Shown: positions 3,868 through 47,376, numbered from the stretch's first letter. The stretch: 51,234 nt of DNA from Candidatus Pacearchaeota archaeon (GCA_023132255.1 JAGLYK010000015.1:1-51234); one strand, 5' to 3'. The notes: generated by a model not told the origin, from the sequence alone. Numbers and translations are program-made.

Positions 3868-4812
3868 CTATTTCATTAATTCACATTTTTTGCAAACATT
3901 TTTCCTTGAAGGCTCACCGCAAATTTTGCAATATTTAATTTTAATCTTATTTTCTTCGCTTTTTTTATCTTTCACAAAAATTTTCTCAAAATTATTCAAA
4001 ATATTTTTCTTGTCTTTTTCAGACAAGGTATTTACAAAATCTCTTACTTCCCCCCTGTATGATTCTTGAGAATATTTACATTTTCCTTCAATAAAAGGTA
4101 TTTTTTTTTGAATGGCGTATTTTTTAACATCTTCTTCAAAAACATAAAATAAAGGTTTTATTCTTGGAACAAATTTCTTGTCAGAAATGTTTTTTGTAAC
4201 AGGTCCAGAACTAAAACTCATCTTCGGACTTCCTTTCAAAACATTCATCAGACAAGTCTGAGCTTGGTCGTCTAAATTATGTCCTGTTGCAATTTTATCT
4301 GCTTTTAATTTTCTTGCTGTTTTATTTAAAATCCATTTTTTAAAAACCCCGCAAACCGCACAATTATTCAATCTTTTCTTTTTTATCTTTTTCCAAACAT
4401 CTTGCATTGTTTTCCCTTGCTCTTTCTTCATATCATAAACATGCAACTTTATTCCCAGCTCCTCACAAAGTTTTTTCACCGCCCCCAGGCATTTTTTACT
4501 ATACTCGCTAATCCCCAAATCAATATACAATCCTTCAATATTATACCCAAACTTCTTCAATAAAAAAGCCGTGACAGCAGAATCTTTTCCTCCAGAAAGT
4601 GCTACTAAAATTTTTTCTTTTTTGCCCTTTGTGTTTATATCCCTTCTCACAGAGGGTACCTCGTTAGAGGTTCTCGTGCCGGGAACAAAGTGAGGCGGTA
4701 CACCCTTGGGTGTGGAAAGTTTGATTTTCTTTAATGTTTGTTTAACTTGGCTTTCTACAGACGAGTTAGCTAAAATCTTTGATTTTTGTCTGACTTGTGT
4801 TTCGAGTTCCAT
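3868..4812 (-). CDS. PP-loop ATPase, tRNA 2-thiolation family (TtuA/NcsA/TtcA-like)
   Basis: SGGKDS PP-loop, GHNLDDQAQT motif, C-terminal CKICG...CKKC zinc finger. The N-terminal part carries a repeat-derived insertion. Confidence 0.8.
   Translation of the reverse strand: MELETQVRQKSKILANSSVESQVKQTLKKIKLSTPKGVPPHFVPGTRTSNEVPSVRRDINTKGKKEKILVALSGGKDSAVTAFLLKKFGYNIEGLYIDLGISEYSKKCLGAVKKLCEELGIKLHVYDMKKEQGKTMQDVWKKIKKKRLNNCAVCGVFKKWILNKTARKLKADKIATGHNLDDQAQTCLMNVLKGSPKMSFSSGPVTKNISDKKFVPRIKPLFYVFEEDVKKYAIQKKIPFIEGKCKYSQESYRGEVRDFVNTLSEKDKKNILNNFEKIFVKDKKSEENKIKIKYCKICGEPSRKNVCKKCELMK
4641..4715 (-). repeat. 75-nt GC-rich repeat module inserted in frame in the TtuA-like CDS
   Basis: Encodes TPKGVPPHFVPGTRTSNEVPSVRRD between the KKIKL helix and the KILVALSGGKDS PP-loop. 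Contains the GGTGTACC core (4697-4704) and imperfect inverted termini GAGGCGGTACACCC / GGGTACCTC. The ACCTCTAACGAGG hairpin is shared with 39682-39694. Confidence 0.75.
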
Positions 4813-4878
4813 TAACAGGATAATAAGAAAGAGTTTTAATATCTTTTTAATAAATATATCTTGCCGCCAAAATAATTA

Positions 4879-5508
4879 TTAATTTGAAATTTTCTTAGAC
4901 AACCAACTTTTTATTACCCACCAAACTGCAAAAATTATAAAAGCAATTTCAAAGAAAACAATCTGATAATAAAAAGGCACTTTCCCAAGATATGCAATCA
5001 CAAATGCAAAAGGAGTTATTCCTATAATAGTTGCTAATAAATAATTTTTTAATTTTATTTTTGTAAAAATTCCAAGTGCATAACTCAATACATCTACAGG
5101 AAGAATTATTCTAAATAATACAACACTCCAGAATAAATGTTCTTGAGGTATTTTCTTTTCAAGATTATGTATTTTTTCTAAAGAAATAAATCTTTTAATA
5201 ATTTTATACCCATATTTTCTTCCAAGAATAAATGCAATCCACGCGCCAATTGTCCATGAAAATATGTTTATGAGCCCGGTAAAAAACCATCCCCATAAAT
5301 TTGAGGCAACTGCGATTAAAGGAAGAGTTGTAACCGGAGCAATAACAATTGAAATTATTTCTATAAATATAAAAACAATTATGCCCGCAAAATCATTAAC
5401 AACCAGATTCTCAAAATAATCCAGATTCGTCTGCACGACATATGAAGCCCAGATAAATAAAACTATAACAATAATTATTTCTATTAATCCTTTTATTTTT
5501 TTATTCAT
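4879..5508 (-). CDS. TVP38/TMEM64 (DedA-related, VTT domain) membrane protein
   Basis: Multi-pass membrane protein with a motif around WGWFFTGLINIFSWTIGAWIAFILGRKYG typical of the family. Confidence 0.65.
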   Translation of the reverse strand: MNKKIKGLIEIIIVIVLFIWASYVVQTNLDYFENLVVNDFAGIIVFIFIEIISIVIAPVTTLPLIAVASNLWGWFFTGLINIFSWTIGAWIAFILGRKYGYKIIKRFISLEKIHNLEKKIPQEHLFWSVVLFRIILPVDVLSYALGIFTKIKLKNYLLATIIGITPFAFVIAYLGKVPFYYQIVFFEIAFIIFAVWWVIKSWLSKKISN

Positions 5509-5540
5509 AATTTATCAAGCAAAAAAGAGTATTTAATATA

Positions 5541-7169
5541 TTACTTAGATTTCTTTTTCTTCTTAACAACCTGAAATCCTTCCCAGCTAATTATCAAAGC
5601 AAGAACAACCAATGCTCCGGCAAATATGCTTAACACCCAATTCCCCTCAACAATAAAACCTGTCTTGCTAAACAAACTATAAAATAAAGCAGAAATCGTT
5701 GTCAGCATCATAAAGATTGTAGGAATTATCAAAAACTTAATGTTTCTTTTTTTCTGCACAAAATACGCACTGATTGTTATCAATACAATAGCAACAATTA
5801 ACTGATTAGATGTTCCAAACATTCTCCATAAATCTGCATAAGCATTTGTCACAGCAAGAATATAAGCAGGAACAATCGCAATAATTACTGCAACTATTTT
5901 ATTCTGGAAGATTTTATGTTTAATGTTTTCTGAAATCAACATCCTGCTGATTCTGCTTGAAGTGTCAAGTGAAGTAAGAATAAACTGGTTTACTAAAAAT
6001 GCTCCAATTAAGCTGGCTAAGCCAAAAGATAAAAATGGCACGCCAATTTTAGAGACAATACTTCCAAACCCGTTGCCAAATGCAATTACCCATCCCTGGT
6101 CAAGCGAACCTAAAAAATTCAGATGGCCAGTATCCCAATTTAAACTTGCAACAAACAACACAACCAAAAGTGCTAAAATACCCTCGGCAATCATCCCCCC
6201 ATAACCAATAAACTTTCCATGCTGTTCTTTTGCTAATTGCTTTGAAGTTGTGCCAGAGGCGACTAAGGAATGAAATCCTGAAGCTGCACCACAGGCTACT
6301 GTAATAAAAAGTATGGGCCACAACGGCAAATTACCTGCCACATACACTGGAGCATTAATCACAGGACGCACAATTAAAAGCGAAACAAATCCAAGCAGCA
6401 TAAACAAAATTAACTGAATTGATGAAAGGTAATCACGAGGTTGCAAAAACATCCAGACAGGAATCAGTGAAGCAAGCCCTCCGTAAGCAATAAGAATTGT
6501 TATCCAGACAAATTTAGAAACAGCTTCTGAAAAAGGAAGCGAGATTGGAAAAAGATACCCTATATACATAAAAAAGAACGCCACAGCAAGAGCAGCAAGA
6601 CTTGAAATCAAGGGGTTTGCCTTAAACTTGTAAACCGCTATCCCTAAAATAAACGCAATAACACTGATTGCCAAAACAGGAATAACCAGCATGGGCTGGG
6701 CAATAATGCTGTCTGCAGCAGAAACAGAAAACACCGCAATAATCAGTGTAAGAAGTATCCAAATCATAAGAGCGAAAATCTTCCCTGCCTTGCTGCCAAG
6801 TGACTTTTCAGTGATCTTGGAAATTCCTTTTGCCTTGTTTCTGACAGAAATCATCAAAGACAAATAATCATGAACAGCCCCGATAAAAATCGTCCCAATA
6901 ATAATCCACAAACTTGTCAAAGCCCATCCAAAATAACTCACAGCGAGGATAGGACCAATAATCGGACCTGCACCTGCAATCGACGCAAAATGATGCCCAA
7001 AAAGAAAAAACTTGTTAGAAGGATAATAATCTATTTTCCCCTTATTCAAAACCGCAGGAGTTTTTTTATTAGTCGGCTTAATCTTTTTCTCAATATATTT
7101 TCCATAAAGAAAATAATTTCCAATAAGAAATAAAATTCCCACAACTGCAATTAATGCTGCGTTTACCAT
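5541..7169 (-). CDS. cstA: carbon starvation protein CstA family transporter
   Basis: 542-aa polytopic protein with the HHFASIAGAGPIIGPILA signature of CstA. Confidence 0.85.
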   Translation of the reverse strand: MVNAALIAVVGILFLIGNYFLYGKYIEKKIKPTNKKTPAVLNKGKIDYYPSNKFFLFGHHFASIAGAGPIIGPILAVSYFGWALTSLWIIIGTIFIGAVHDYLSLMISVRNKAKGISKITEKSLGSKAGKIFALMIWILLTLIIAVFSVSAADSIIAQPMLVIPVLAISVIAFILGIAVYKFKANPLISSLAALAVAFFFMYIGYLFPISLPFSEAVSKFVWITILIAYGGLASLIPVWMFLQPRDYLSSIQLILFMLLGFVSLLIVRPVINAPVYVAGNLPLWPILFITVACGAASGFHSLVASGTTSKQLAKEQHGKFIGYGGMIAEGILALLVVLFVASLNWDTGHLNFLGSLDQGWVIAFGNGFGSIVSKIGVPFLSFGLASLIGAFLVNQFILTSLDTSSRISRMLISENIKHKIFQNKIVAVIIAIVPAYILAVTNAYADLWRMFGTSNQLIVAIVLITISAYFVQKKRNIKFLIIPTIFMMLTTISALFYSLFSKTGFIVEGNWVLSIFAGALVVLALIISWEGFQVVKKKKKSK

Positions 7170-8692: not shown

Positions 8693-9397
8693 TCATCCCA
8701 ACTTCTTAATATCCTTTATTTCTTCATTACTAATTGAACAACCTTTAAATTTAACAGCCCAAAGCAATGCATCTAATAATTTTCCGTCGCCCATTCTCAC
8801 AAGTTTTTTCTTGTATGCAATATAAACCAATTCAGCAGACCGAATTATCTTGAACTTTTTAAAAAACTCAAAATTGTTGCCCCGTTCTTTTTGCATTTGG
8901 GGTACACCTGGCGGTGATTTTTTAGAAATTATCTTGGTGTGCATTTTCTTCTCTAAAAAACTTCCTAATTTCTCAGGACTCTCAACAAGCATCCGTGTTG
9001 TCCTCTCATCAATCGCCACAACATTCAAAATATTTTTTTCAGAAAGAATTTCACTCAACGCCAAACAGGAAATTTCCCCTGCACTAACTAATTTAATATC
9101 CTTGCCTTTTCCCTCAAACATACTATTCGCAATATTTAAAATTTCTTTTGTGTTTTTTTGAATTCCTTCCACATTTGCTATCTCAAGAACCCCTTCATCT
9201 AAAAGATGCTGAATCTTCAACGCCTCCAACTTAAACCGAGTTATTGTCATTGGTATGTCAACAACCTCTCTTTTCACATCCTGCGTAATCAAAAAACTTC
9301 CATTAAAAACTTTTTTCAAATCTCGCAAAATATCCAAAATCCCATTCATAGCAAAACTAATCAAAGTGCTTGAGTCAAAGATTATTGCACGGTTCAT
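8693..9397 (-). CDS. PIN-domain-like protein
   Basis: The N-terminus (AIIFDSSTLISF...ITQDVKREV) resembles a PIN-fold nuclease. Contains the in-frame SPPGVPQMQ module. Confidence 0.5.
   Translation of the reverse strand: MNRAIIFDSSTLISFAMNGILDILRDLKKVFNGSFLITQDVKREVVDIPMTITRFKLEALKIQHLLDEGVLEIANVEGIQKNTKEILNIANSMFEGKGKDIKLVSAGEISCLALSEILSEKNILNVVAIDERTTRMLVESPEKLGSFLEKKMHTKIISKKSPPGVPQMQKERGNNFEFFKKFKIIRSAELVYIAYKKKLVRMGDGKLLDALLWAVKFKGCSISNEEIKDIKKLG
8881..8917 (-). repeat. GGTGTACC-core repeat module in frame (PPGVPQ)
   Basis: Coding strand reads CACCGCCAGGTGTACCCCAAATG. Related to the tail AACCGCCAGGTTCTTTTG of the ScpA copy and AACCGCGAGGTGTCTTTTG of the L10e copy. Confidence 0.65.
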
Positions 9398-9927: not shown

Positions 9928-9933
9928 TCAAAG

Positions 9934-10012
9934 ATCCCCTCTCGTTCGACTACACTTCTTATTCCGATGACATAGACACCATCCGGGTGTGGGCGGGCGA
10001 ATGAAAATCTTC
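9934..10012 (-). repeat. intergenic copy of the mosaic repeat (M1-type with internal insert)
   Basis: Minus strand reads GAAGATTTTCATTCGCCCGCC...GTCGAACGAGAGGGGATCTTTGA-ATG. It fills the whole gap between two CDSs and ends at the start codon of 9394..9927. Confidence 0.7.
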
Positions 10013-10547
10013 ATTGGAAGATTTCCTTCACAAGTTTAATTCTCTCTCTAACTCCTAATGTCTTAGTTTTATGAGCATCTAAAACTCCTGTCTGCCCTGC
10101 ATAATTCGCAAGTTCCCAGACTGTAATTCCCAAAAGTTTCGCAGTGTTCTGCATTGAAACACCGTGCCCGTAAATCTTCGACGCCTTGTTAATGCTCGCC
10201 TTCCTAAAAACTTCCTGAATATATTTTTTCATCCCCGGAGAAGTCTTCCCAATCTCCGCACGCAATTGTTTTAAATTTTTCTTCAGCAAGTTCTCATCTT
10301 TCTTTGCACTTCTCATAACCTCATCAATCTTTCTAGTCACAACATTTAAATTCTCAACATATCCTCTCTCCAAAATCTTGCCCAAAGAATAAACAATCAC
10401 AGCAACAGCAATGTTGTCTGCATCTTGCGTCCTCGACGCAGTATTATTTGTCTGGTCACTCAACTGCTTAAGTTTCAAAGTATCTTTATTTTTCAAGGCA
10501 ACTTTTGTCTCTTCAAGAATCCTAAGAATATTTTCAACCTCTTCCAT
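10011..10547 (-). CDS. hypothetical protein (possible C-terminal HTH)
   Basis: 178-aa ORF. The segment SMQNTAKLLGITVWELANYAG looks HTH-like. Confidence 0.45.
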   Translation of the reverse strand: MEEVENILRILEETKVALKNKDTLKLKQLSDQTNNTASRTQDADNIAVAVIVYSLGKILERGYVENLNVVTRKIDEVMRSAKKDENLLKKNLKQLRAEIGKTSPGMKKYIQEVFRKASINKASKIYGHGVSMQNTAKLLGITVWELANYAGQTGVLDAHKTKTLGVRERIKLVKEIFQ

Positions 10548-13667: not shown

Positions 13668-14054
13668 ATGGAAATAATTAATGAAAAAGAAAACAAACTT
13701 TTCAACAGAAAAGAAATTCAAATAAATATTGAAGCAGAAATTACACCAAGTCATGAAGAAGCTAAAAAATTAATTTCTGAAAAATTCTCAACCCAACCAG
13801 AAAACATCAGAATAAAAAAAATCTTGGGAAAGTTCGGCTCAAAAGTTTTTGAGATTTCTGCAAATATTTATTTTTCTGAAGAAGAAAAAAATAAAACTGA
13901 AATTTTTTCAAAAAAAGAAAAAGAAAGAGAGAGAAAACCTGAACCTGCATCGCCTGGTGTACCCTCAAATACTGAATTACAGGGCAAAAAAACCGAAGCT
14001 CCTGTTGAAGAAAAACAAGAAGAAATTAAAGAAAAATCTAATGAGGTAAATTAA
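13668..14054 (+). CDS. rps24e: 30S ribosomal protein S24e with a K/E-rich C-terminal extension
   Basis: The N-terminal ~95 aa match the S24e pattern (NKLFNRKEIQ...ITPSHEE...). The tail contains the ASPGVPSNT repeat module. Confidence 0.85.
   Translation: MEIINEKENKLFNRKEIQINIEAEITPSHEEAKKLISEKFSTQPENIRIKKILGKFGSKVFEISANIYFSEEEKNKTEIFSKKEKERERKPEPASPGVPSNTELQGKKTEAPVEEKQEEIKEKSNEVN
13938..13985 (+). repeat. GGTGTACC-core repeat module in frame in the S24e tail
   Basis: CCTGAACCTGCATCGCCTGGTGTACCCTCAAATACTGAATTACAGGG. The ACTGAATT.C.GGG part resembles CTCACTGAATTCGGG in the thermosome insertion. Confidence 0.6.
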
Positions 14055-15027: not shown

Positions 15028-16029
15028 ATGGAAAAAGATGTGAGGGATATGCGATTTCCGTCGGATTGCAATAGAGAAATTGCTTCACGGAACAGGAAGC
15101 AAATCAAAGATTTTCAGTCGTCCGCCGAGGACATCGAACGAAAGGGAGATTCCAAAGAACCGCCAGGTTCTTTTGTTCAGGAGCAAATCCACGACATTTT
15201 ATTCAACAGGGAAATCGGTTGGCAAGAAATCATCTACGACCTAATCAACACAGAACAGCTTGACCCGTGGGACATAAACATAACAATTCTAACTAACAAA
15301 TACCTTGAAAAAATAGAGCAATTTGAAGAAGCAGATTTCTTCATCTCAAGCAAAGTCCTTTTGGCAGCTGCACTTCTCCTTAGAATCAAATCTGAAATCC
15401 TGTTAAACACTTACATCAAAAGCATAGACGAAATCCTCTTTGGAAAAAAAGAAAAAAAGAAACATGTCCTTGAAAGAATCGAACTTGACGAAGAAATCCC
15501 AGAACTAATTCCCCGAAGCCCAATTCCTCGTTACAAAAAAGTTACATTAAAAGAATTAATTAATTCATTAAACAAAGCAATCAAAACCGAAAACAGAAGA
15601 ATCAAAAAAGAAATAATCCACAAAAACGCATTAAGGGAAACAGGAATCTTTTTGCCAAAAAGAAAAATCAACATCCGCAACAAGATAAAACAAATCTATG
15701 AAAACCTGTTAAGTCATCTTGGCGAGGATAAAGCCAGGAAAAAAATTTCTTTTACAGAATTTGCCGGAACAAGCAGGGAAGAAAAAATAGCTTGTTTTTC
15801 TCCGCTTCTGCATCTGGAAAATCAAAAAAAAATCTGGCTTGAACAGGAAGAGCATTTTGAAGAAATTCATCTCTGGCTCAAAAAAACTTATCTAAAACAT
15901 AATCCAGACCCATTTGCAGATTTAAAATACGAAATAGAAAAAGAGATAAAAACCGAGGACATCAAACGAGACAAAGAACAAAAACAAAGATTAGACAAAA
16001 TAAATAAAGATTTTGTGGAACTTATTTAA
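15028..16029 (+). CDS. scpA: segregation and condensation protein A (kleisin) with a repeat-derived N-terminus
   Basis: The core (WQEIIYDLINTEQLDPWDINITILTNKYLEKI...) is ScpA-like. There is no in-frame ATG/GTG/TTG downstream of the repeat, so the repeat must be translated. Confidence 0.75.
   Translation: MEKDVRDMRFPSDCNREIASRNRKQIKDFQSSAEDIERKGDSKEPPGSFVQEQIHDILFNREIGWQEIIYDLINTEQLDPWDINITILTNKYLEKIEQFEEADFFISSKVLLAAALLLRIKSEILLNTYIKSIDEILFGKKEKKKHVLERIELDEEIPELIPRSPIPRYKKVTLKELINSLNKAIKTENRRIKKEIIHKNALRETGIFLPKRKINIRNKIKQIYENLLSHLGEDKARKKISFTEFAGTSREEKIACFSPLLHLENQKKIWLEQEEHFEEIHLWLKKTYLKHNPDPFADLKYEIEKEIKTEDIKRDKEQKQRLDKINKDFVELI
15051..15175 (+). repeat. composite mosaic repeat (hairpin module M0 + module M1 + tail) forming ScpA codons 9-50
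   Basis: GCGATTTCCGTCGGATTGCAATAGAGAAATTGC (M0), then AAGCAAATCAAAGATTTTCAGTCGTCCGCCGAGGACATCGAACGAAAG (M1), then GGGAGATTCCAAAGAACCGCCAGGTTCTTTTG (tail). Confidence 0.85.
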
Positions 16030-25007: not shown

Positions 25008-25403
25008 TTAATCATAATTCCTAACACCTGACTTTCTTTCCAAAACATCTATCCGTTGCTGAAGATGGTAAATCTGGTTTGACAAATCTTCTATCTTAGT
25101 TGTCATGTCTAAAAGTCTTTTTGCAAGTTTTCTTTTTTTCTCATCAACAGAAGAAACATTGCCCCCGAATATTCCATCCTGCATATCAGGGGGTACACCT
25201 TTAGGTGCTAATCCGGAATTTGCAGATGAATCATTTTTGGAGATAGTATTTGCAATTGCACCAAAAAACCCAAGACCTCCTGCATTTTCAGAAGGACCCG
25301 AGGATTCCTGTAAATCCTGCTCCATCTCTTCAGTACGCGCTTGCTGTCTTTCATATCTCTTGGTTAAATCAAGAATCCTATTTTTCCTTTTAAACCATTT
25401 CAT
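25008..25403 (-). CDS. hypothetical coiled-coil protein with a disordered centre
   Basis: 131 aa. Basic N-terminus, C-terminal heptad-like region, and a central APKGVPPDM module. Confidence 0.5.
   Translation of the reverse strand: MKWFKRKNRILDLTKRYERQQARTEEMEQDLQESSGPSENAGGLGFFGAIANTISKNDSSANSGLAPKGVPPDMQDGIFGGNVSSVDEKKRKLAKRLLDMTTKIEDLSNQIYHLQQRIDVLERKSGVRNYD
25186..25210 (-). repeat. GGTGTACC-core module in frame (APKGVPPDM)
   Basis: Coding strand reads GCACCTAAAGGTGTACCCCCTGATATG. Core at 25192-25199. Confidence 0.6.
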
Positions 25404-27585: not shown

Positions 27586-29001
27586 ATGGGGGAAATTGAT
27601 GAAATAATAAATAAGGTGAGTCCTTATTACAAGGCAAAAGCTGAACCTGAGGCAGAGCACAAAATCGTTTACGATTCTTCAACAGAAACCTTGGAGCCTG
27701 TTTATTTTTGGATTTTGGATTTCATGAACAACATGATGGGACTTTCAACAGAAAAATTAGTTGACAATTTTACATCATCTCCTGGCTCAGGGCATTTTGG
27801 AGAATTAGGTCAAAGAGCAACAGTGATGCAGCAGCAAGGACAAAACATGCTCGCGCAAATAAACACCATCCTGAGAAGTGTGTTAAATATAATTTATGAT
27901 TTAAAAGAATTTAAAATAAGACTTCAAAGTTATGACGATTTAAAATCAGAAGGAAAAAAAGAAGCTGCACGACAAAGTTTAAAGCAAATCTGGTTAGACA
28001 AGGTTGACATGCAGAAAGGAAACTCAAGTATAAAAGCAATGGCTTTGGGACAGGCAGGATTCCAAACCCTGCTCGACGCATTTTTAGTAGTCAATGACAT
28101 AAAAGGAGCTGAGAAACTTGATTTAAACGACAGGGTGAAAAGAATTGTTTCTGCAAGAATACACGAATTTAATATTTGGCTTACACAATCTGAAATAGAA
28201 CTAAGAAAAAGATATGAAATGGAACGAATTTATTTAGGCAGTCAGGTTAATTCATTAAAGCTTTACTCTCGGTGGGCAAAACCTTATCTAAAAGCAGCAC
28301 AGCAACTTGAAATGAAAGAGAGCAAAAGAGAACCTGCATTAGTAAAAACATTCAATACAATTTTACTTGAATTAACTTTATTAGGAAAAGACGGGGTAGA
28401 TGTGAAAAAATCCGCAATTGCAGGGGACTTGCCAACTGACTTTCAAAAACTAAAAACAAAAAGAGATTATTACAGCTGTGTTCTGGTTGATTTCAATTTC
28501 AGAGGAATACCCCAAAGAGTGGCACAAAGAGGAGACTACGCCTTCGGAGGAAGAGCAGAAGTAACTTTCAAGGCTTATGCATTAAACAGCGAAGAGTTGG
28601 ATAAACTAAATTATGAATTAGACAAGTCAGACATAGGAGATGTTCTAAAATTAATAGAGGGTTCAACATCAGAAAGTCTGGACCAGTTGCAGAAAGAAAT
28701 TGATTTTTTCCTGAAAGAAAAAGAAAACCAGGAAGAAAAGGAAAAACCAAAAGACCAGTCAAATCCTTTTCTGGCTTTAATCGGGCATTATGATAAAAAA
28801 GATAAATCAGAAAAACAAGATAAGTCTGTACCCAAGGGTGTACCCTCTAAAGAGGACAAAGACAAAGACAAGCCAGTCAAGCCAGACAATTGGATTGAAA
28901 AAACTCACCTCAGAGCTTTCGCAGCAGCAGAAGCAGTTGACAAAGTTTTCACAATTTTTGATGTTTACAAAAAGTCACATGGAATGGAAAGCTTCACATA
29001 A
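27586..29001 (+). CDS. hypothetical protein (471 aa, no recognised family)
   Basis: Long non-repetitive ORF. The K/D-rich linker near the C-terminus carries the VPKGVPSKE module. Confidence 0.6.
   Translation: MGEIDEIINKVSPYYKAKAEPEAEHKIVYDSSTETLEPVYFWILDFMNNMMGLSTEKLVDNFTSSPGSGHFGELGQRATVMQQQGQNMLAQINTILRSVLNIIYDLKEFKIRLQSYDDLKSEGKKEAARQSLKQIWLDKVDMQKGNSSIKAMALGQAGFQTLLDAFLVVNDIKGAEKLDLNDRVKRIVSARIHEFNIWLTQSEIELRKRYEMERIYLGSQVNSLKLYSRWAKPYLKAAQQLEMKESKREPALVKTFNTILLELTLLGKDGVDVKKSAIAGDLPTDFQKLKTKRDYYSCVLVDFNFRGIPQRVAQRGDYAFGGRAEVTFKAYALNSEELDKLNYELDKSDIGDVLKLIEGSTSESLDQLQKEIDFFLKEKENQEEKEKPKDQSNPFLALIGHYDKKDKSEKQDKSVPKGVPSKEDKDKDKPVKPDNWIEKTHLRAFAAAEAVDKVFTIFDVYKKSHGMESFT
28826..28852 (+). 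repeat. GGTGTACC-core module in frame (VPKGVPSKE)
   Basis: CTGTACCCAAGGGTGTACCCTCTAAAG. The 14-mer CCCAAGGGTGTACC is identical to the TtuA-like copy. Core at 28837-28844. Confidence 0.6.
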
Positions 29002-29767: not shown

Positions 29768-30358
29768 ATGCCAAAAGAAGTAAATGAATCAAAACAGGAA
29801 GACAAAGAAAAAGAGAAACAAGATGATTCTGAATTAGAAGAACTAATTGAAAAACCAGAACAAAATGAAACAGCACCTGAAGGTGTACCTTCTGATGAGG
29901 CAGACGAGGGCAAAGAATCTAATATTGACCAAAATCAGTTCAGGGAATTTTTGCAGACAGAATCAACTGCACCTGTTTTAGAAGAAATCACAGGAGAGCA
30001 GGAATTAGGCGGTCGGGTTTTTTTCACACCTGGGATGGACACAGATGTACAGGACGAGGACAATGCTTTCAGATACGACATACAAGCAAAAGAAGATGAG
30101 CCAAAATATCACGGAGATTATTCTACAGCAAGGCAAAATTTGGAAGAAATTGACACAGCAAAAATCGGGAGAGACATTGGGCAACCTCAAGTTAGGGAAG
30201 CTGGATTTGTGCATGCTGTTGAACAAACTGATTCTCCAATGCAGGAAAAATATCAAGAAGCACAAAAAATTGACATGGAAAAAGTCGGGAGAGAAAATCT
30301 TTTTGAAACAAGAGTTAAGGAAGTAGAACGAAAAAAATTAGACTATGTTATAAAATAA
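29768..30358 (+). CDS. hypothetical acidic protein
   Basis: 196 aa, D/E-rich. The N-terminal region carries the APEGVPSDE module. Confidence 0.5.
   Translation: MPKEVNESKQEDKEKEKQDDSELEELIEKPEQNETAPEGVPSDEADEGKESNIDQNQFREFLQTESTAPVLEEITGEQELGGRVFFTPGMDTDVQDEDNAFRYDIQAKEDEPKYHGDYSTARQNLEEIDTAKIGRDIGQPQVREAGFVHAVEQTDSPMQEKYQEAQKIDMEKVGRENLFETRVKEVERKKLDYVIK
29873..29900 (+). repeat. GGTGTACC-core module in frame (APEGVPSDE)
   Basis: GCACCTGAAGGTGTACCTTCTGATGAGG. Core at 29882-29889. Resembles CAAGGTGTCTTTTGAGG at the tRNA-Val cassette end. Confidence 0.6.
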
Positions 30359-30406
30359 AAACATTAATAAATACCCTTTCTTTTTATATATTGGAGGACC
30401 TATGTG

Positions 30407-30515
30407 ATTTCCCTTGGATTGCGAGCGATTTCCGAGGCTCAACAAAGTTGAGTCATCCCAGTGGGATGGTAGGGACAAAATGAAAATAATAAATAACCTG
30501 TGTGAAGTCGGGAGG
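30407..30515 (+). repeat. two-hairpin repeat element, copy 1 (candidate 5'-leader RNA)
   Basis: 55 nt (30421-30475) are identical to 39864-39918. Hairpins are CTCAAC-aaa-GTTGAG and CATCCC-agt-GGGATG. A conserved 3' box AATAACCTGTGTGAAGTCGGGAG ends 9 nt before the ATG at 30525. Confidence 0.8.
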
Positions 30516-30524
30516 AACTTTTGA

Positions 30525-32368: not shown

Positions 32369-33358
32369 ATGGTGACAAAAAAGAAAACTTCCAAGAAAGT
32401 AAAAAAAATTTCTAAGAAGAAACTTCCAGTTTTAGTCAGCAAGAAGAATAAGTCAAAATCTATAAAACAAAAAAAAGTTGTGAAAAAAAAATCCACCCGA
32501 TTTCCCTCGGAGGCTCTTAAAGAAGTTGCCCACCGGAACAAAAAGAAAAAATCCAAAAAAATTAATCCAAAAGATATCGCTACTTTGAATTTAAGATCAG
32601 AACATGATATTGCAATGGATTTTGCAACAAAAGCATATAAAAAATTTAACAGAGTAATAAAATCAATCATCCTCTTTGGTTCATCAATAAAACAGACTTC
32701 AACTGCAGATTCTGACATTGACATAATAATTTTAATTGACGATGTTTCAATACACTGGGACCAAAAATTAATTGCATGGTACAGGCAAGAACTTGACAAA
32801 TTATTAAAGGCAAATCCTTATGAAAAAAGCCTGCATATTAATACAGTCAAGTTAAGCACTTGGTGGGAAGATTTAATGAGAGGCGACCCAATTATCCTAA
32901 ATATTTTAAGACAAGGGAAATCATTAATTGATCTTGCAGGATTTTTTGAACCATTAAAATATTTGTTAATCAAAGGAAAAATAAAATCCACTCCTGAAGC
33001 AATTTACAGTTGTCTTCAAAGAGCACCAGTACACATACAAAGAAGCAAGTCTGCTGAATTGAATTCTATTGAAGGTTTATACTGGGCAATGGTTGACTCT
33101 GCACATGCAGCACTCATTGCTGCAAACATTTCCCCACCTTCGCCAGAACATATTGCCCCAGAACTAAAAGAAACTTTTGTCCCTGGAAAACTAAAAATGA
33201 AATATGTTGTTTGGTACAGGGATTTACTAATTCTCCATAAGGACATCACTCATGGAAGAATCCACGACCTTAAAGGCGCAGATATAGATGAATGGCAGGA
33301 TAGAACAGAAGAATTCTTGGGAGTCATGGCGAGGTTGGTTAATAAACTTGTTAGTTAA
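32369..33358 (+). CDS. nucleotidyltransferase (Pol-beta superfamily) domain protein with a helical C-domain
   Basis: ILFGSSIKQTSTADSDIDIIILIDD (GS...DxD). Paralog of 35966..37516. The K-rich first ~85 aa may not be real, and an alternative start is MDFATKAYKK. Confidence 0.6.
   Translation: MVTKKKTSKKVKKISKKKLPVLVSKKNKSKSIKQKKVVKKKSTRFPSEALKEVAHRNKKKKSKKINPKDIATLNLRSEHDIAMDFATKAYKKFNRVIKSIILFGSSIKQTSTADSDIDIIILIDDVSIHWDQKLIAWYRQELDKLLKANPYEKSLHINTVKLSTWWEDLMRGDPIILNILRQGKSLIDLAGFFEPLKYLLIKGKIKSTPEAIYSCLQRAPVHIQRSKSAELNSIEGLYWAMVDSAHAALIAANISPPSPEHIAPELKETFVPGKLKMKYVVWYRDLLILHKDITHGRIHDLKGADIDEWQDRTEEFLGVMARLVNKLVS
32497..32545 (+). repeat. hairpin module (M0) of the mosaic repeat inside the NTase ORF
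   Basis: CCGATTTCCCTCGGAGGCTCTTAAAGAAGTTGCCCACCGGAACAAAAAG compares with the minus strand of 34838-34886, GCGATTTCCATCGGAGGCTCTTAAAGAAATCGCCCACCTGAACAAAAAG. It encodes RFPSEALKEVAHRNKK in the same frame as RFPSDCNREIASRNRK in ScpA. Confidence 0.75.
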
Positions 33359-34799: not shown

Positions 34800-34883
34800 C
34801 AAAAGACACCTCGCGGTTTCTTTTGTAAACTTCCCTTTTTGTTCAGGTGGGCGATTTCTTTAAGAGCCTCCGATGGAAATCGC
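34800..34883 (-). repeat. 84-nt cassette (hairpin M0 + TATA-like box + AGGTG) abutting the L10e start codon
   Basis: About 72/84 identical (hand alignment) to 39466-39549. Minus strand reads GCGATTTC-N17-GAAATCGC...GGGAAGTTTACAAAAGAAACCGCGAGGTGTCTTTTG-ATG. Confidence 0.85.
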
Positions 34884-39366: not shown

Positions 39367-39392
39367 ATTTACCTCTTATTTATTTAATAACA

Positions 39393-39464: not shown

Positions 39465-39465
39465 T

Positions 39466-39549
39466 CAAAAGACACCTTGCGGTTTCTTTTGTAAACTTCC
39501 CTCTCTGTTCAGATTAGCGATTTCTTTATTGCAATCCGATGGAAATCGC
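39466..39549 (-). repeat. 84-nt cassette (hairpin M0 + TATA-like box) abutting the tRNA-Val 5' end
   Basis: Second copy of the 34800-34883 cassette. It ends 1 nt before tRNA-Val position +1. The hairpin loop variant (GGATTGCAAT) matches the ScpA copy. Confidence 0.85.
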
Positions 39550-39615
39550 AGGGATATTGCAACTATTATTTTAGTCGCATAAATTTTATATAGCATGTGT
39601 GCTTTTAAGTTTTAC

Positions 39616-39661
39616 GCGTGGTTAATTTATTGATAGAATACATCGTTGCCAACGATGTGAG
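39616..39661 (+). pseudogene. tRNA-Gly(GCC)-like 5' portion (acceptor strand, D arm, complete anticodon arm) without a recognisable T arm
   Basis: GCGTGGT-TA-ATTT-ATTGATA-GAAT-A-CATCG-TTGCCAA-CGATG-TGAG compares with the intact tRNA-Gly GCGTGAG-TA-GTTT-AATGGTA-GAAC-G-TAACG-TTGCCAA-CGTTG. It is followed by repeat-related sequence (ACCTCTAACGAGG). Confidence 0.5.
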
Positions 39662-39749
39662 CCGGGTTTCCCACAGGGATGACCTCTAACGAGGCCTCAA
39701 TTCCCTCGCGACTATATTTTTTTAAACTATCTTTTCTAATTTCTTTTAA

Positions 39750-39820
39750 GCGTGAGTAGTTTAATGGTAGAACGTAACGTTGCCAACGTTGAGATCGGAG
39801 TTCGATTCTCCGTTCGCGCA
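39750..39820 (+). tRNA. tRNA-Gly (GCC)
   Basis: Acceptor GCGTGAG/TTCGCGC (two G-U pairs), anticodon arm TAACG-TTGCCAA-CGTTG, T arm CGGAG-TTCGATT-CTCCG, discriminator A. Confidence 0.9.
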
Positions 39821-39854
39821 TAATAACATAGTAAATATGGGAGTCTGAGGGTTC

Positions 39855-39955
39855 ATTTTCCCGGCGAGCGATTTCCGAGGCTCAACAAAGTTGAGTCATC
39901 CCAGTGGGATGGTAGGGAGTAAATTTAATATTAATAACCCGTGCGAAGTCGCGAG
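39855..39955 (+). repeat. two-hairpin repeat element, copy 2
   Basis: The 55-nt core 39864-39918 is identical to 30421-30475. 3' box AATAACCCGTGCGAAGTCGCGAG. Lies between tRNA-Gly and the EamA transporter gene. Confidence 0.8.
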
Positions 39956-40014
39956 TTAGCGCATTTCCTTAAATCTTTTAAACCCTTTTTCCTAATATTA
40001 AACAGAGGTGAAAC

Positions 40015-40872
40015 ATGGTTTTTTATTTTCCAATTTTAGGTGCAGTTGCATTAGCAACAGGGCTTGTAGTGCAAAAAACACTTTTACGAAAAAGAAAAAT
40101 CAACATCAAGCTTTTCCAGTCAGCAGAATTCCTCGCAATTACTTTAGCACTTCTTCCTTTTGTTTATTTTTTCTGGAAAATTGATGCCCAGGCATTTGAA
40201 CTCGGAAATACACTCATCTTCTCGTTGGTAATTATTCTTTCAATCGCCGCGAACCTTTTTACTTATTATTCAATGAAATGGGAAAAATTAAATAATCTGG
40301 AACCTGCAAAACTCCTTGAACCATTATTTATTATTTTGCTCGCAATTATTTTTAGCTACTTGGTAAGCGAAACCCTTTTTGAAAGAAATATAAAAATAAT
40401 CATCCCTGCATTAATCGCCAGTGCTGCAATAATTTTCTCGCACATAAAAAAACATCATTTGCATTTCAACAAATATTTCATCGCAGCAATCCTCGGAAGC
40501 TTTTTCTTCGCACTTGAATTAATAATCACAAGACTAATCCTTGACTTCTACTCCCCGACAACATTTTATTTCTTAAGATGCACAACAATTTTCCTAATCA
40601 GTTTCATTGCATTTAAACCAGACTTCAGCAAACTAAACAAAAAAGTAAAATTACAAATTTTCGCATTAGGATTTCTCTGGGCTTTTTACAGGGTAATAAT
40701 TTATTACGGCTTCCTAAAACTCGGCGTAATCTTCACAACACTAATGATAATGCTTAGCCCGATATTTATTTATTTGTTTGCATGGAAATTCCTAAAAGAA
40801 AAATTAAGCTGGAGAAACATCGTCGCTGCTTTAGTTATAGTTGGGTGTGTTTTGTATGCTATTTTGGGTTGA
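40015..40872 (+). CDS. EamA/DMT-family transporter
   Basis: 285 aa, about 10 TM segments in two repeated halves. Confidence 0.75.
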   Translation: MVFYFPILGAVALATGLVVQKTLLRKRKINIKLFQSAEFLAITLALLPFVYFFWKIDAQAFELGNTLIFSLVIILSIAANLFTYYSMKWEKLNNLEPAKLLEPLFIILLAIIFSYLVSETLFERNIKIIIPALIASAAIIFSHIKKHHLHFNKYFIAAILGSFFFALELIITRLILDFYSPTTFYFLRCTTIFLISFIAFKPDFSKLNKKVKLQIFALGFLWAFYRVIIYYGFLKLGVIFTTLMIMLSPIFIYLFAWKFLKEKLSWRNIVAALVIVGCVLYAILG

Positions 40873-41120: not shown

Positions 41121-42824
41121 TCAATACCCTGGCATCCCAGGCATGCCCCCTGTCATGGAATTCATGCTCCCTGTTTTATCTGTTGAAGCAATAACATCAT
41201 CAATTCTTAAAATCATAATCGCAACTTCTGACGCAGAATTAATTGCCTGACTCTTAATTTTGTACGGCTCAATAATTCTTGCTTCCAGAACATTTTCAAC
41301 TTTGTTAGTAAACAAATTAATTCCGGCATTTTTTTCCCCGGCATCATGCCTTGATTTTAATTCTGTTAAAATATCTATTGGATCAATTCCTGCATTTTCT
41401 GCCAAAGTTGTTGGTATAAATTCCAACGCAGATGCAAACTCTTCAACAGCGAGTTGTTCTCTTCCGCTTAATGACTGGCCAAAATGCCTTAGTCTGTGCG
41501 CAAGTTCAATTTCAATAGCACCTCCCCCTGGAACAACCAACCCGGTTTTCATGGAAGAGGCAACATCACCCATGCCATCTTTTAAAGCTCTTTCAGTTTC
41601 ATCAAGAACATGCTCTGTTCCGCCATGAATTAAAATTGTTAATGCTTTTGGGTTTTTGCATCCTTTAATATAAGTTAAAGTATCTTCGCCATGCTTCACT
41701 TCTTCAACAATCTGGGCATAGCCTAATTCCGGCGAAGCAAGCTCATTTAAATTACTCACGATTTTTCCCCCGGTTGCCTTGGATATTTTTTCCATATCGC
41801 TTTTTGCAACTCTTCTGCATACATAAATATTTTTTTTAGATAATAAATACTGCGCAAAATCATCAACCCCTTTCTGGCAAAAAACAACATTTGCTCCGGA
41901 CATCTCAATTTTCCCAACCATGTCTTTAATTGATTCTTCTTCCTGCTGAATAAAACTCTGCAACTGCTCAGGAGAAGAAATTGAAATTTTTGTATCTATT
42001 TCAGGATTTTTTAATTCCAAAGCAAAATCAACCAAAGCAATTTTCGCATCATAAACAACCTTCGGCATATCAGCTGAAACTTTCTCCTTGTCCAGAACAA
42101 TTCCGGAAATCAATTCTGTATCTTTAATGCTGTTCCCTTTTGATTTTTCTATTTTAATATCATTTAAATCAATTTTCCCATTATGCTGAATTTGCTTTCG
42201 TTCAATGTCCTCGGCGGACGATTGAAAATCTCCGATTTGCTTTTTCCCGAATTCAGTGAGGGAAGTTTGAAAATCTCCGATTTGCTTTACAGCCTTGACA
42301 ATAATCTCTGCGAACTTTTCTTTCAGACCCTCGGCACCTTTGCCAGTCATAGCAGTCATGGCAATTTGTTTTAAAATGTCTTCATCCTCGGGGCTAATCT
42401 TTAAAGAAATCTCCTTTAAAATTTCCTGGGTTTTTTCTGCTGCAATTCTATAGCCTTTTGTAATAATAGTTGGATGAATTTTTTTATCTAAAAGTTTTTC
42501 AGCATTTTCCAAAAGTTTTCCAGCAATCATAACTGCTGTGGTAGTTCCGTCCCCAACCTCACTTTCCTGCGTCTTTGCAATTTCTACCATCATCTTTGCG
42601 GCAGGGTGTTCAATCTGCATTTCATCTAAAATCGTCACGCCGTCGTTGGTAACAACAATATCATTTGTCGGAGAAACCAACATCTTGTCCATGCCTTTAG
42701 GACCAAGAGTAGTTTTAACAATCTCTGAAACCATCTTCGCCGCTAAAATATTATTTCTTTGGGCATCCTTGCCCATTATCCTCTGAATATCTTCTGGCAT
42801 TAGAACAACTGGTTTTTCTGTCAT
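41121..42824 (-). CDS. ths: thermosome subunit (group II chaperonin) carrying a 30-aa repeat-derived insertion
   Basis: [34 protein letters not shown] motifs and a GGMPGMPGY tail. The extra segment is [30 protein letters not shown]. Confidence 0.95.
42189..42287 (-). repeat. tandem 2 x 45-nt repeat units in frame inside the thermosome gene, bounded by AAGCAAAT(C/T)
   Basis: AAGCAAAT(C/T) occurs at 42279-42287, 42234-42242 and 42189-42197, a 45-nt period. Unit B is 44/48 identical to ScpA 15097-15144. Confidence 0.9.
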
Positions 42825-45912: not shown

Positions 45913-45944
45913 AATCATTTGGTTATATTTTTAGAGATAAAGGA

Positions 45945-46262: not shown

Positions 46263-46304
46263 ATTTAGTTTAAGATTTCTTTATTTTTATAATTTTCGTA
46301 TTAA

Positions 46305-46508: not shown

Positions 46509-46565
46509 TTAGATTGGTCTCCCAAGAATTATACAATTTTATAGTTTTCTATGAAGAAGAAAAAA

Positions 46566-47156
46566 TTAAGAATAAATTTCATCCCATAAAGTTTCAAAAT
46601 TCTTTCGAAGATCAACATTAACTGAATCTGTCAAATGAGTAATATATTTATCAAAATCTATCTTAAGTGCAGTTAAAAAAAGGTGTGGATTAATAAGAAT
46701 AGATTCTCCATCTACTCCAAGCAAGATAGCATTTGCTAAATCTGAATTAATTAATATTTTCTTTCTTACCATCCCATCATGAAAAAGGCCGTGCCTCACA
46801 TCATTAACAAGTATCTCAAGTGCTTTTTCATGTTGAGAGGGAATAGTAAATATTCTCCTTAGAGAATCTTTAATCACTTCTTTAGACTCACTAAAATTAG
46901 TCTTCTTGCCTCTTCTAAATTGTTCTATTCCTTCTAATTGGCTCATGCAAATCATTAGAATAACAAAACCACTATGGAATTCATCTTTGAGCAGTTCGGC
47001 TATATCCAAAAACCACCCATTAACTCTATCTTGATAAACTGCAATCTTTGTATTTAAATCATTATTGTACTTATTCACAACAACTTCTTCCTTCATTATA
47101 TTAGTACTTAATTCGGGGTCTAAAAAAAAGTTCGGGCTTATCGCTGTTCTAACCAT
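46566..47156 (-). CDS. hypothetical protein
   Basis: 196-aa ORF with no recognised family. Confidence 0.5.
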   Translation of the reverse strand: MVRTAISPNFFLDPELSTNIMKEEVVVNKYNNDLNTKIAVYQDRVNGWFLDIAELLKDEFHSGFVILMICMSQLEGIEQFRRGKKTNFSESKEVIKDSLRRIFTIPSQHEKALEILVNDVRHGLFHDGMVRKKILINSDLANAILLGVDGESILINPHLFLTALKIDFDKYITHLTDSVNVDLRKNFETLWDEIYS

Positions 47157-47295
47157 ACTTTTCTTAATTGATTAAATGTATTTAACTTTTATTGTGATAT
47201 TAAATATACAATAAATCCACTATTTTGCACGAAAATAAAATATCCCTCCACTACAACTCCCGACCCCACTCGTCGTCAATATTGATTTATTTTTC

Positions 47296-47376
47296 TCTCC
47301 TCGTGAAATCGCTCTCGTTTGACGACCTTGGCGGACGAATGAAAATCTTTGATTTGCTTGGACTTGAATTCTGGGG
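47296..47376 (-). repeat. intergenic copy of the mosaic repeat (M1 followed by the start of M0)
   Basis: Minus strand reads CCCCAGAATTCAAGTCC-AAGCAAATCAAAGATTTTCATTCGTCCGCCAAGGTCGTCAAACGAG-AGCGATTTCACGAGG. Confidence 0.8.

Follow-up and report, generated by a model that had tools for sequence, protein, structure and literature searches.

A family of short GC-rich hairpin repeats between and inside the genes of a Pacearchaeota-type DPANN archaeon

The window, that is, the whole stretch of 51,234 nt that was analysed, carries genes for NrdR, NrdD, ribosomal proteins S24e and L10e, ScpA, the thermosome, several enzymes and a set of tRNAs. Our analysis confirmed that this tiny-genome, AT-rich host (31% GC), a Pacearchaeota-type DPANN archaeon, carries a family of short hairpin repeats. 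The modules are 24-126 nt long, G+C-rich and hairpin-forming. We counted 16 loci, 9 of them inside CDSs, plus one hairpin insert within a tRNA-like sequence (Table 1). A sequence-only reading had claimed at least 15 loci sharing modules, a different chaining at each locus and nine CDSs with in-frame copies. The count bears this out and all nine named CDSs carry a module. The chaining it gave was correct at ScpA, at L10e and tRNA-Val (both M0 + tail), at 47297-47371, 30402-30524 and 39864-39955, and at the thermosome gene.

Table 1 Repeat copies in the window, in order of position.
Coordinates	Strand	Module	Location and encoded peptide	Length or support
3223..3250	-	M1 5′ fragment (AAGTAAATCAAAGATTTTCA), then TTTACAAA	between NrdR and NrdD, sense to NrdD	
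4624..4713	-	GVP element, 51-nt form with nested 39-nt hairpin unit	in frame in TtuA-like (TIGR00269) CDS; TPKGVPPHFVPGTRTSNEVPSVRRDINTKG	90 nt
8879..8917	-	GVP element	in frame in DUF3368/PIN-like CDS; SPPGVPQMQKERG	39 nt
9928..10014	-	M1-like unit with expanded loop	3′ end (GAGGGGATCTTTGA) adjoins ATG (9927) of His_Phos_1 gene	nhmmer E = 3.7e-5
13947..13985	+	GVP element	in frame in C-terminal tail of ribosomal protein S24e; ASPGVPSNTELQG	
15049..15174	+	composite M0 + M1 (45 nt) + tail	in frame after ScpA codon 7	126 nt; CM matches
25161..25208	-	GVP element	in frame in 131-aa coiled-coil ORF; APKGVPPDMQDGIFGG	
28825..28848	+	short GVP element	K/E-rich linker of conserved 471-aa protein; SVPKGVPS	24 nt
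29873..29911	+	GVP element	in frame in 196-aa ORF; APEGVPSDEADEG	
30402..30524	+	start of M0 + two-hairpin module + GGGAGGAACTTTTGA	ends exactly at ATG (30525) of 601-aa AP_endonuc_2 gene	
32495..32536	+	M0 hairpin copy	in frame in K-rich N-terminal tail of nucleotidyltransferase (NTase); TRFPSEALKEVAH	~42 nt; CM match
34800..34883	-	A element (M0 + linker + tail)	directly upstream of L10e; last base precedes ATG (34799-34797)	CM match
39465..39549	-	A element	directly adjoins tRNA-Val 5′ end (39464)	CM match
39659..39694	+	hairpin modules (TCCCACAGGGA, CCTCTAACGAGG)	within tRNA-Gly-like sequence (approx. 39616-39715)	
39864..39955	+	start of M0 + two-hairpin module	between tRNA-Gly and EamA, sense to EamA	
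42189..42278	-	two 45-nt units, each starting AAGCAAATCGGAGATTTTCAA; second is full M1	in frame in thermosome gene; 30 residues, letters not shown	90 nt
47297..47371	-	M1 + start of M0 (GAGCGATTTCAC)	between intron-containing tRNA and 196-aa gene, sense to both	nhmmer

The named modules occur well above chance and are non-random. In the window, the exact M0 pattern and the tail pattern were each matched twice against 0.00 expected, the M1 20-mer five times (0.45 expected), GGTGTACC six times (0.18 expected) and ACC-N4-GGTGT eight times (0.23 expected); two imperfect M0 copies lie in ScpA and NTase. Self-BLAST returned module matches of 45-94 nt at 80-92% identity (E 1e-5 to 1e-25), and in a k-mer scan GGTGTACCC and GCGATTTCC came out near the top of the over-represented GC-rich 9-mers. 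The same loci are present in independent assemblies (NCBI GCA_030630265.1, ENA ERZ23498622 and Logan SRR13892599), and the elements are therefore not assembly artefacts. Family members also occur in other MAGs and metagenomes. Since the examined part of this genome comes to about 69 kb (the window plus about 18 kb of flanks), any genomic copy number is an extrapolation. Rfam 15 brought only tRNAs to the gathering score in the window. With permissive settings, the region 39350-40020, where one A element and one two-hairpin copy lie, yielded nothing beyond a chance-level match (E = 0.39). We found no report of such in-frame hairpin repeats for archaea.

The family consists of two sub-families, the A element and the GVP element, joined by a common ACC-N4-GGTGT hairpin. 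The A element (~85 nt) comprises the M0 hairpin, a conserved purine linker GGAACAGGAAGGGAA and a tail hairpin. Its loops can hold a nested M1 unit of 45 nt or additional hairpins, and a two-hairpin variant exists, whose copies at 30402-30524 and 39864-39955 are 89% identical. The GVP element reads CACC-N4-GGTGTACCC...RGGGC, with an optional nested 39-nt hairpin. It was found inside ORFs only and always in one frame; no intergenic GVP copy was seen. Its ACC-N4-GGTGT hairpin recurs in the non-coding tail module. What had been described as a short core, GGTGTACC, is indeed present, but is more than a core, being part of this distinct 24-51-nt element with its own 3′ end. The structure is nested and polymorphic; CCTCTAACGAGG, for example, is common to the tRNA-Gly-like insert and the nested TtuA unit. 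The M0 stem is 98.6% paired with 2 covarying pairs, and the two-hairpin consensus shows compensation in 5 of 15 pairs. The stems are maintained through compensatory changes, and stem changes give G.U pairs on the sense strand only; changes of the G.U type also mark the stem of the NTase copy. The ends of the A element (GCGATTTCC... and ...GGTTCTTTTG) and of the GVP element (CACC... and ...RGGGC) are not inverted copies of each other; both contain internal hairpins only.

Aligning the host proteins with orthologues, a check proposed by the sequence-only reading, gave precise empty sites in close relatives, some as near as 87-92% identity. Empty sites were obtained for eight insertions: thermosome, ScpA, DUF3368/PIN-like, TtuA-like, the 471-aa protein, NTase and two intergenic two-hairpin copies. 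The DUF3368/PIN-like insertion is missing from the orthologue in relative L130 (87% identical), the NTase copy from that in relative L133, and ScpA of both relatives has MGEKEVNNVKQEQIHDILF without the 126-nt composite. The GVP insert of the 471-aa protein is missing from all 119 other homologues among the matches listed, one of them at 92% identity. The thermosome copy consists of 1.5 M1 units and a reversed tail-like piece. At its site, 113 of 120 homologues have no insertion, none of the 119 others carries this insert, and DNA alignment showed the site empty in relative L125. The thermosome gene of L134 shows recurrent or patchy occupation of the same site in a divergent lineage. Likewise, the TtuA-like insertion is missing from 110 of 120 homologues and its carriers are polyphyletic in the tree, and its DNA is near-identical in L130, L131 and L132. 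Other sites are shared or hold another module: S24e of L130 has a GVP element with extra modules, the L133 orthologue of the 196-aa ORF has the same GVP element, and the L133 orthologue of the coiled-coil ORF has another module (TGMTSEDG) at the GVP site. The six ORF insertions that were measured each have a length divisible by three and no stop in the host frame, and all nine ORF copies are in sense orientation. Translation therefore continues through them, and they form additional hydrophilic loops in proteins that are conserved elsewhere. The predicted structure has pLDDT below 50 in the thermosome insert region.

Many intergenic copies are also sense-oriented, and their 3′ end (SD-like GGTG/GGAGG plus CTTTTGA) touches an ATG or a tRNA start; several supply the SD-like sequence 6-8 nt upstream of the ATG. 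The element end adjoins the ATG or tRNA +1 at L10e and tRNA-Val, at S27e and tRNA-His in L133, and at a wHTH gene in L124. Upstream of NrdD (ATG at 3214), about 8 nt separate the end of the M1 5′ fragment from the start codon, and about 16 nt separate the M1 core from it. The L10e copy places GAGGTG 7 nt upstream of the ATG and occupies the orthologous site in L133 and L134, which makes three genomes. Both hairpins show compensatory changes, and the leaders fold alike (z-scores -2.1 to -3.7). Other copies vary between relatives. About 120-130 nt are missing at the L133 site orthologous to the AP_endonuc_2 upstream copy, and about 137 nt upstream of EamA in L125. In this 21.6-kb syntenic relative, nhmmer found no module, and its orthologous tRNA intron holds a tail-like hairpin. 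Overall, 16 of 18 loci are in sense orientation, and one A-element copy lies antisense in a 3′ intergenic region.

As the sequence-only reading had claimed for the window, Pfam detected neither a transposase nor an integrase in the scanned ORFs, and the precomputed lists, which cover most of the other called window genes, contained none either. Neither an IS nor a transposase turned up in the ORFs that were scanned, which come from the window and about 18 kb of flanking sequence, and the available sequence gave no Y1_Tnp (RAYT) match. We found no constant target-site duplication (TSD); the junctions vary. Microhomology is present as a 9-nt AAGCAAATC/T repeat at the thermosome junction, AAG on both sides of M1 in ScpA, and a GTACC(C) direct repeat around the nested TtuA unit (approx. 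4655-4696); the DUF3368 junction has no repeat. With no transposase, terminal inverted repeat (TIR) or constant TSD found, the term "mobile" rests on presence and absence only.

We compared the modules with known repeat systems. REP/BIME, BOX, ERIC and Correia-type repeats are mosaic hairpins co-transcribed with their neighbours, with some regulatory copies and compensated stems. In mitochondria, GC clusters and double-hairpin elements (yeast, Allomyces) are thought to spread by recombination or gene conversion, with no transposase. The archaeal modules resemble these, and the repetitive hairpin-forming elements (RHEs) of sponge mitochondria (PMC2800124), as GC-rich hairpins that invade a compact, very AT-rich genome, insert into one another and optionally lie in frame within protein genes. 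They differ in belonging to a free archaeal genome rather than an organelle, and a sequence relation is not expected. We know of no description of gene-start abutment or sense bias for the mitochondrial elements. Like the bacterial small dispersed repeats (PMC3733652, PMC12306157, PMC10969869), our modules are short imperfect palindromes chained in variable order and orientation, co-transcribed with neighbouring genes, with stems held by compensatory changes and some copies giving regulatory signals. REPs are extragenic by definition, whereas 9 of the 16 window loci lie inside CDSs; the GTAG/CGTC head and a RAYT are missing from the module ends and the available sequence, respectively, and the TIRs of Correia elements and MITEs are lacking. 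Archaeal MITEs, listed for Sulfolobus, Halobacterium and Haloquadratum (PMC10969869), are likewise short non-autonomous repeats. However, neither the TIRs nor the fixed TSDs of classical MITEs were found here, the scanned ORFs held no recognisable parent IS, and in-frame genic copies are not reported for MITEs.

The closest likeness is to the Rickettsia palindromic elements (RPEs), short palindromic repeats in frame in unrelated functional genes with no associated transposase (PMC10969869, PMC3733652). In both cases the host is an obligate symbiont-like organism with a reduced, AT-rich genome, and many copies lie in a consistent frame and add a hydrophilic peptide at permissive positions of functional ORFs. 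The archaeal units are smaller (RPEs, ~100-150 bp) and more modular or nested, many precisely adjoin gene starts with an SD-like sequence, and nearly all are sense, the intergenic ones included. Given the archaeal host, a sequence relationship is not expected; we treat the family as an analogue, not a member.

We consider it probable (roughly 0.65) that this is a lineage-specific, RPE/BIME-like mosaic repeat family that was recently copied to new sites, beside gene starts and, in frame, within essential genes, the chaperonin among them, and that was partly co-opted as 5′ leaders. Close relatives differ in whether a copy occupies a given, exactly defined site, which supports this reading. The elements would spread at the DNA level. 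Copy-in might occur through recombination, or through template switching from one copy to another, at microhomologies; alternatively, a trans-acting enzyme specific for the hairpins might be encoded in another part of the genome. Selection might then retain only harmless copies, in the one hydrophilic frame, or useful ones in the 5′ leader or translation-initiation region. The patchy distributions could alternatively stem from ancient insertions followed by repeated precise loss.

The gene-start copies raise the question of whether the A element functions first of all as a cis-acting RNA, a leader or translation-initiation cassette shared by translation-related genes (L10e, S27e, tRNAs) and bound by a common factor, with ORF and 3′ copies as by-products of duplication. 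The abutment to ATG or tRNA +1, the SD-like sequence and the three-genome conservation at L10e, the sense-strand G.U pairs and the strong sense bias all argue for it. Yet close relatives differ in which genes carry the element (tRNA-Val in the window, tRNA-His and S27e in L133), the hosts are functionally mixed (ScpA, NTase, EamA, wHTH), one copy is antisense and two lie inside ORFs. A TATA-like box is missing from the L134 tail, and no Rfam family matches. We therefore hold it unlikely as the primary function. The earlier suggestion of promoter/SD cassettes occasionally captured into ORFs was partly right, namely for the copies that end at an ATG or tRNA 5′ end and for L10e.

One may ask whether the GVP sites, instead of being repeat DNA, are a short linear motif selected in disordered regions at the peptide level (P-x-G-V-P-[PS]), such as a site of docking or modification. 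All six copies are in ORFs, sense, in one frame and in disordered or low-complexity segments; the motif recurs in other genomes, and an equally tolerable antisense frame is never used. Against this, the rare codons GGT (17%) and GTA (19%) encode every one of the six P-x-GVP sites, which shows identity at the DNA rather than the peptide level; three other GVP tripeptides in other contexts use other codons. The flanking nucleotides and the 3′ RGGGC end are also conserved, the non-coding tail module contains this hairpin too, sites come and go between 87-92% identical orthologues, and the host proteins are functionally unrelated. A selected peptide motif is thus improbable. Removal of the ORF copies from RNA, as bulge-helix-bulge (BHB) introns or similar, so that they never reach protein, was also proposed earlier. 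Archaea do splice such introns, the window has an intron-containing tRNA, and the L125 tRNA intron holds the tail-like hairpin. But the measured inserts keep the frame open, and a relaxed BHB search at their boundaries matched at 1 of 6 sites against a per-site background of 12%. We rejected BHB introns, and RNA removal in general is hardly credible.

The mosaic repeat family copied to new sites remains our preferred reading. The sequence-only reading had seen a family between and inside genes and likened it to RPEs, selfish repeats tolerated in ORFs; the empty sites support the core of that claim, and purely selfish DNA does not explain the near-total sense orientation. Random insertion with protein-level filtering does not fully explain it either, given the uniformly sense ORF copies and a GVP antisense frame (EGTPLG) that is equally open and hydrophilic yet never used. 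The lack of intergenic GVP copies is likewise odd for selfish DNA. A more speculative and rather unlikely idea is that the modules are a new kind of transcript-sense-specific mobile cassette in DPANN archaea. These hairpin RNA/DNA units would be inserted in the transcribed direction, either at a gene start or immediately behind it and, in one frame, in ORFs. If this is true, the mechanism of insertion or retention would be tied to transcription or translation (RNA-templated or open-complex-targeted), and the elements could provide genes with finished leaders and Shine-Dalgarno sites and extend core proteins by peptide loops.

Shuffling the window, we found every module far above expectation. 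M0 gave 2 matches against 0.00 expected, the M1 20-mer 5 against 0.45, the tail 2 against 0.00, GGTGTACC 6 against 0.18 and ACC-N4-GGTGT 8 against 0.23. The modules noticed in the sequence-only reading are real and non-random, and the shuffles rule out chance or composition as their source. Self-BLAST of the window returned matches of 45-94 nt with E values down to 1e-25, profile and covariance searches found the same loci again, and a k-mer scan placed GGTGTACCC and GCGATTTCC among the most over-represented GC-rich 9-mers. We counted 16 loci in the window and 2 in about 18 kb of flanking sequence of the same genome. The setting is a Pacearchaeota/"Nanoarchaeota"-type DPANN MAG with 31% G+C in the window, whose DNA is also found in NCBI GCA_030630265.1 (contig DAOVNK010000001.1) and ENA ERZ23498622 (scaffold_22). 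The nearest protein homologues carry Pacearchaeota or Nanoarchaeota annotation, and the housekeeping genes present are thermosome, ScpA, S24e, L10e, NrdD, aminoacyl-tRNA synthetases and five tRNAs.

Aligning the copies of the window and its relatives, we find M0 at one end and the tail at the other end of a single element of about 85 nt (A element). It consists of a first hairpin, GCGAYTTC-N17-GAARTCGC, a conserved purine linker, CACCGGAACAGGAAGGGAARTTCC, and a second hairpin, AAAGAACC-loop-GGTTCTTT(TG). The M0 stem is 98.6% paired across copies, with two covarying pairs; only the two ORF copies have imperfect stems, with changes that allow G.U pairing on the sense strand. The 45-nt M1, AAGCAAATC..GAACGA, is a unit in its own right, which stands alone, between linker and tail (ScpA) or reversed after the tail (related loci L075 and L124). 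Further hairpins are nested in element loops of L075, L124b and L128, and the two-hairpin module is a variant that begins with GAGCGATTTCC. The short core of the sequence-only reading, GGTGTACC, is present, but as part of a distinct 24-51-nt element, CACC-N4-GGTGTACCC...RGGGC (GVP element), which may hold a nested 39-nt hairpin unit bordered by GTACC(C). Since the tail and the GVP element have the hairpin ACC-N4-GGTGT in common, it is reasonable to regard them as one super-family.

A peptide/DNA module, TGMTSEDG, is common to two unrelated proteins of the relatives, which points to module types beyond those described here; in one case it takes the place that a GVP element has in the window. 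In another genome (L119), an ORF has a GVP element and, after it, tandem CCCCAAATAGGGG hairpins and a hairpin CCTC..GAGG; the whole chain is read in frame and encodes GVPQIGVRTPNRGENLFETSSRPS.

Inserts, gene-start abutments and neighbouring features of the window and of related loci (L numbers); positions without an L number are those of the window
Feature	Position	Length	Observation
Thermosome insert		90 nt	No insertion at the site in 113 of the 120 closest homologues; this 30-aa insert in no other homologue listed
ScpA insert		126 nt	L130/L133, MGEKEVNNVKQEQIHDILF; window, MEKDVRD-[42 aa]-VQEQIHDILF
DUF3368/PIN-like insert		39 nt	Missing in an 87%-identical orthologue
471-aa protein insert		24 nt	SVPKGVPS; missing in 119 of 119 other listed homologues, one at 92% identity
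NTase insert		about 42 nt	M0 segment missing in L133
TtuA-like insert		90 nt	Missing in 110 of the 120 homologues listed
Two-hairpin copies		about 120-137 nt	Orthologous sites empty in L133 and L125
3'-end abutments, window			L10e ATG; tRNA-Val +1; ATGs at 9927 and 30525
3'-end abutments, relatives			S27e; tRNA-His; wHTH gene
TtuA-like gene	3868-4812 (-); L130 10001-10855		Proteins 67% identical
TGMTSEDG module	L130 1743-2207; L133 9542-9925		L130 copy in S24e
In-frame module chain	L119 4495-4635 (+)		SDBV01007744.1
Zinc-ribbon gene, S27ae-type	14052-14075 (+)		3' of S24e
ATAACCCTGGGAG	about 14671 and 14751		Repeated
TAGGCACTACA	14942-14974 (+)		Two exact copies 22 nt apart
tRNA-Gly(GCC)-like	39616-39715 (+)		Rfam tRNA 19.6 bits, below threshold
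Intron-containing tRNA	47446-47578 (-)		Orthologue L125 3986-4203, intron about 56 nt longer
Winged-helix gene	L124 776-1420 (-)	119 aa	Pfam HVO_A0114 family

Inside genes, the modules are in-frame insertions, as had been proposed, and alignment with the orthologues in syntenic contigs of relatives reveals precise empty sites (Table). In the alignment with L125 DNA, the thermosome insert sits after AAGCAAATC, which recurs at the insert end. Over the 21.6 kb of L125 that are syntenic, nhmmer found no module, and covariance models gave only a weak match inside a tRNA intron. L133 carries A elements upstream of S27e and tRNA-His, and the window has neither. The empty sites opposite the window copies and the L133-only A elements together indicate repeated gain or loss since these genomes diverged; the orthologous proteins compared between them are 75-96% identical (the TtuA-like protein of the window against L130 excepted). 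At the codon of the window insert, the thermosome of a further relative, L134, bears an insert (GNFHPSN..) that is related and looks older.

We also made some observations on tRNA genes. The L125 tRNA intron holds a tail-like hairpin, GGGGAACC-TT-GGTTCCCC (covariance match E = 0.058), and the tRNA-Val of the window is inverted relative to L125. In the tRNA-Gly-like sequence, the variable/T-arm region contains a hairpin insert of about 30 nt and the 3' part is similar to another tRNA; the locus may represent either a disrupted pseudo-tRNA or a tRNA interrupted by a non-canonical intron.

We measured the boundaries of six ORF inserts (90, 39, 126, 24, 42 and 90 nt), and each has a length divisible by three and no stop codon in the host frame. 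The frame used yields hydrophilic peptides with few Cys or aromatics. In the AlphaFold2 model of the thermosome (mean pLDDT 68.8), residues 187-216 fall below 50 between better modelled flanks, and this segment spans most of the insert (residues 181-210). Removal of the modules at the RNA level as bulge-helix-bulge (BHB) introns, an alternative raised in the sequence-only reading, is rejected because a relaxed motif search at the boundaries gave nothing above background and the six inserts keep the frame open. Judged by their sequences, the ORF copies are probably translated and not spliced.

The inserts also retain identity at the DNA level. Window ORFs contain nine GVP tripeptides, six of them in a P-x-GVP-[PS] context. 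GGT GTA CCN codons encode all six, and GGT (17%), GTA (19%) and CCC (8%) are rare in the window; the three tripeptides outside this context use other codons. On this codon usage we rejected a peptide-only origin of GVP. The TtuA-like insert has near-identical nucleotides in four genomes whose host proteins are just 58-67% identical, and third-position identity between the window and L130 is 16/18 in the insert against 170/264 elsewhere in the gene. TtuA-like proteins with the insert fall into at least three separate clades of a neighbour-joining tree, beside insert-free sisters, and a nested GTRT[SC] unit was added after GGTGTACC in two of these clades. This pattern and the same-codon insert of the L134 thermosome point either to recurrent site-specific gain or to recurrent precise loss. 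The window and L130 have TtuA-like proteins from different clades, which suggests gene replacement or recombination. An N-terminal extension of 16 aa (MELETQVRQKSKILAN) sets the window ORF apart from its homologues.

Each of the 16 loci in the window has sense orientation, 9 relative to the host ORF and 7 relative to the next downstream gene. The two flanking copies are antisense, giving 16/18 overall (one-sided binomial about 7e-4, our own calculation). The antisense frame of the GVP element (EGTPLG-like) is open and hydrophilic, yet no copy uses it, and intergenic GVP copies were not seen. Copies of the A, M1-like and two-hairpin types have their 3' ends at gene starts, and the gene-abutting copies have in common an SD-like GGTG/GGAGG followed by (T)CTTTTGA. 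The copy upstream of L10e occupies the orthologous position in three genomes, whose L10e leaders have similar predicted folds. Its stems changed in a compensatory manner, one from GCGATTTC/GAAATCGC to GCGACTTC/GAAGTCGC and the other from CAAAAG/CTTTTG to CGAAGG/CCTCG. Selfish DNA alone does not account for this orientation, abutment and conservation. These three features make it very probable that some copies serve as 5' leaders or as regions of translation initiation. The idea of captured promoter/SD cassettes thus probably holds for its translation-initiation part, given the abutment, the SD-like motif and the conservation, but a general promoter is unlikely. In the L10e and tRNA-Val tails, TTTACAAAA lies about 26-30 nt before the start, but the family consensus tail (GGGAAATTCCAAAG) and the L134 L10e copy (GGTTACGCGAAGG) have no TATA-like box; we therefore rejected the tail as a general core promoter, and promoter function would be a property of one variant at best.

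Near these loci, the zinc-ribbon gene of the window apparently has no ATG, GTG or TTG start (L133, CAATGGCAAAG; window, AAATCGCAAAG; ATG to ATC). L133 has here a 185-nt spacer with an M0-like element that is missing from the window. Upstream of the ScpA promoter, the duplicated TAGGCACTACA, conserved upstream of ScpA in L130 and reversed in L075, may be a regulator binding site.

Pfam detected no transposase or integrase in the covered ORFs of the window and flanks, in agreement with the sequence-only reading, and no reverse transcriptase. We found neither TIRs nor a constant TSD in the elements. The junctions have short element-target homologies: AAGCAAATC in the thermosome, AAG for M1 in ScpA and GTACC(C) for the nested GVP unit. 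These observations lead us to favour copy-in, in which copies would recombine or undergo template switching with one another. As a second option, the genome would encode a trans-acting hairpin-specific enzyme elsewhere. The strict sense orientation and gene-start abutment could reflect a new insertion mechanism. In L124, the winged-helix gene lies between two direct-orientation A elements; the upstream one ends 1 nt before the ATG and is spanned by a called 87-aa ORF that is probably spurious. As a mobilising protein here, this HVO_A0114-family member was rejected, having no homologue in the window or related loci.

Scanning a genome collection with a 17-nt M1 pattern, we obtained at least 118 loci; the pattern is too short, and the matches listed were almost only chance matches in bacteria, with one relevant Woesearchaeota MAG (L075). 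A metagenome scan with a 27-nt pattern gave 6 loci, or 3 distinct sites. The A linker/tail and M1 were unmatched in viral contigs, which gives no hint of a viral vector. Against 1.84 billion representative proteins, the ScpA insert peptide had one true match, a 68-aa probable spurious ORF, in a search of limited sensitivity whose cluster representatives may be without inserts. With essentially no relatives there, a conserved protein domain was dismissed.

The RPE family of Rickettsia, already put forward as the nearest analogy, is the closest functional analogue, being alike in in-frame insertion, consistent frame and a reduced AT-rich genome. The mosaic architecture resembles REP/BIME and BOX elements, and the GC-rich nested hairpins resemble mitochondrial GC clusters and hairpin elements. 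The modules do not have the defining features of MITEs, REPs or BHB introns. A review of prokaryotic MITEs has archaeal cases only from Sulfolobus, Halobacterium, Haloquadratum and Desulfurococcus, with RPEs as the extreme in-frame example (PMC10969869). Our literature search found no such elements described for DPANN archaea. The repeat family is a recently dynamic, new archaeal variant of the RPE/BIME kind.

The modules inflate protein lengths, create spurious small ORFs (e.g. P0241, 87-aa ORF in L124) and can mislead annotation and phylogenomics of DPANN MAGs. To our knowledge, Rickettsia and some organelles are essentially the only known cases of palindromic repeats that have invaded essential genes in frame. 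The same pattern in an ultrasmall archaeal genome, with dated gains between close relatives, nested insertions and same-codon recurrence in divergent lineages, suggests convergence. By this reading, reduced AT-rich genomes of the symbiont type would share a convergent susceptibility to in-frame repeat invasion, and the repeats would supply them with new protein loops and 5' leaders.
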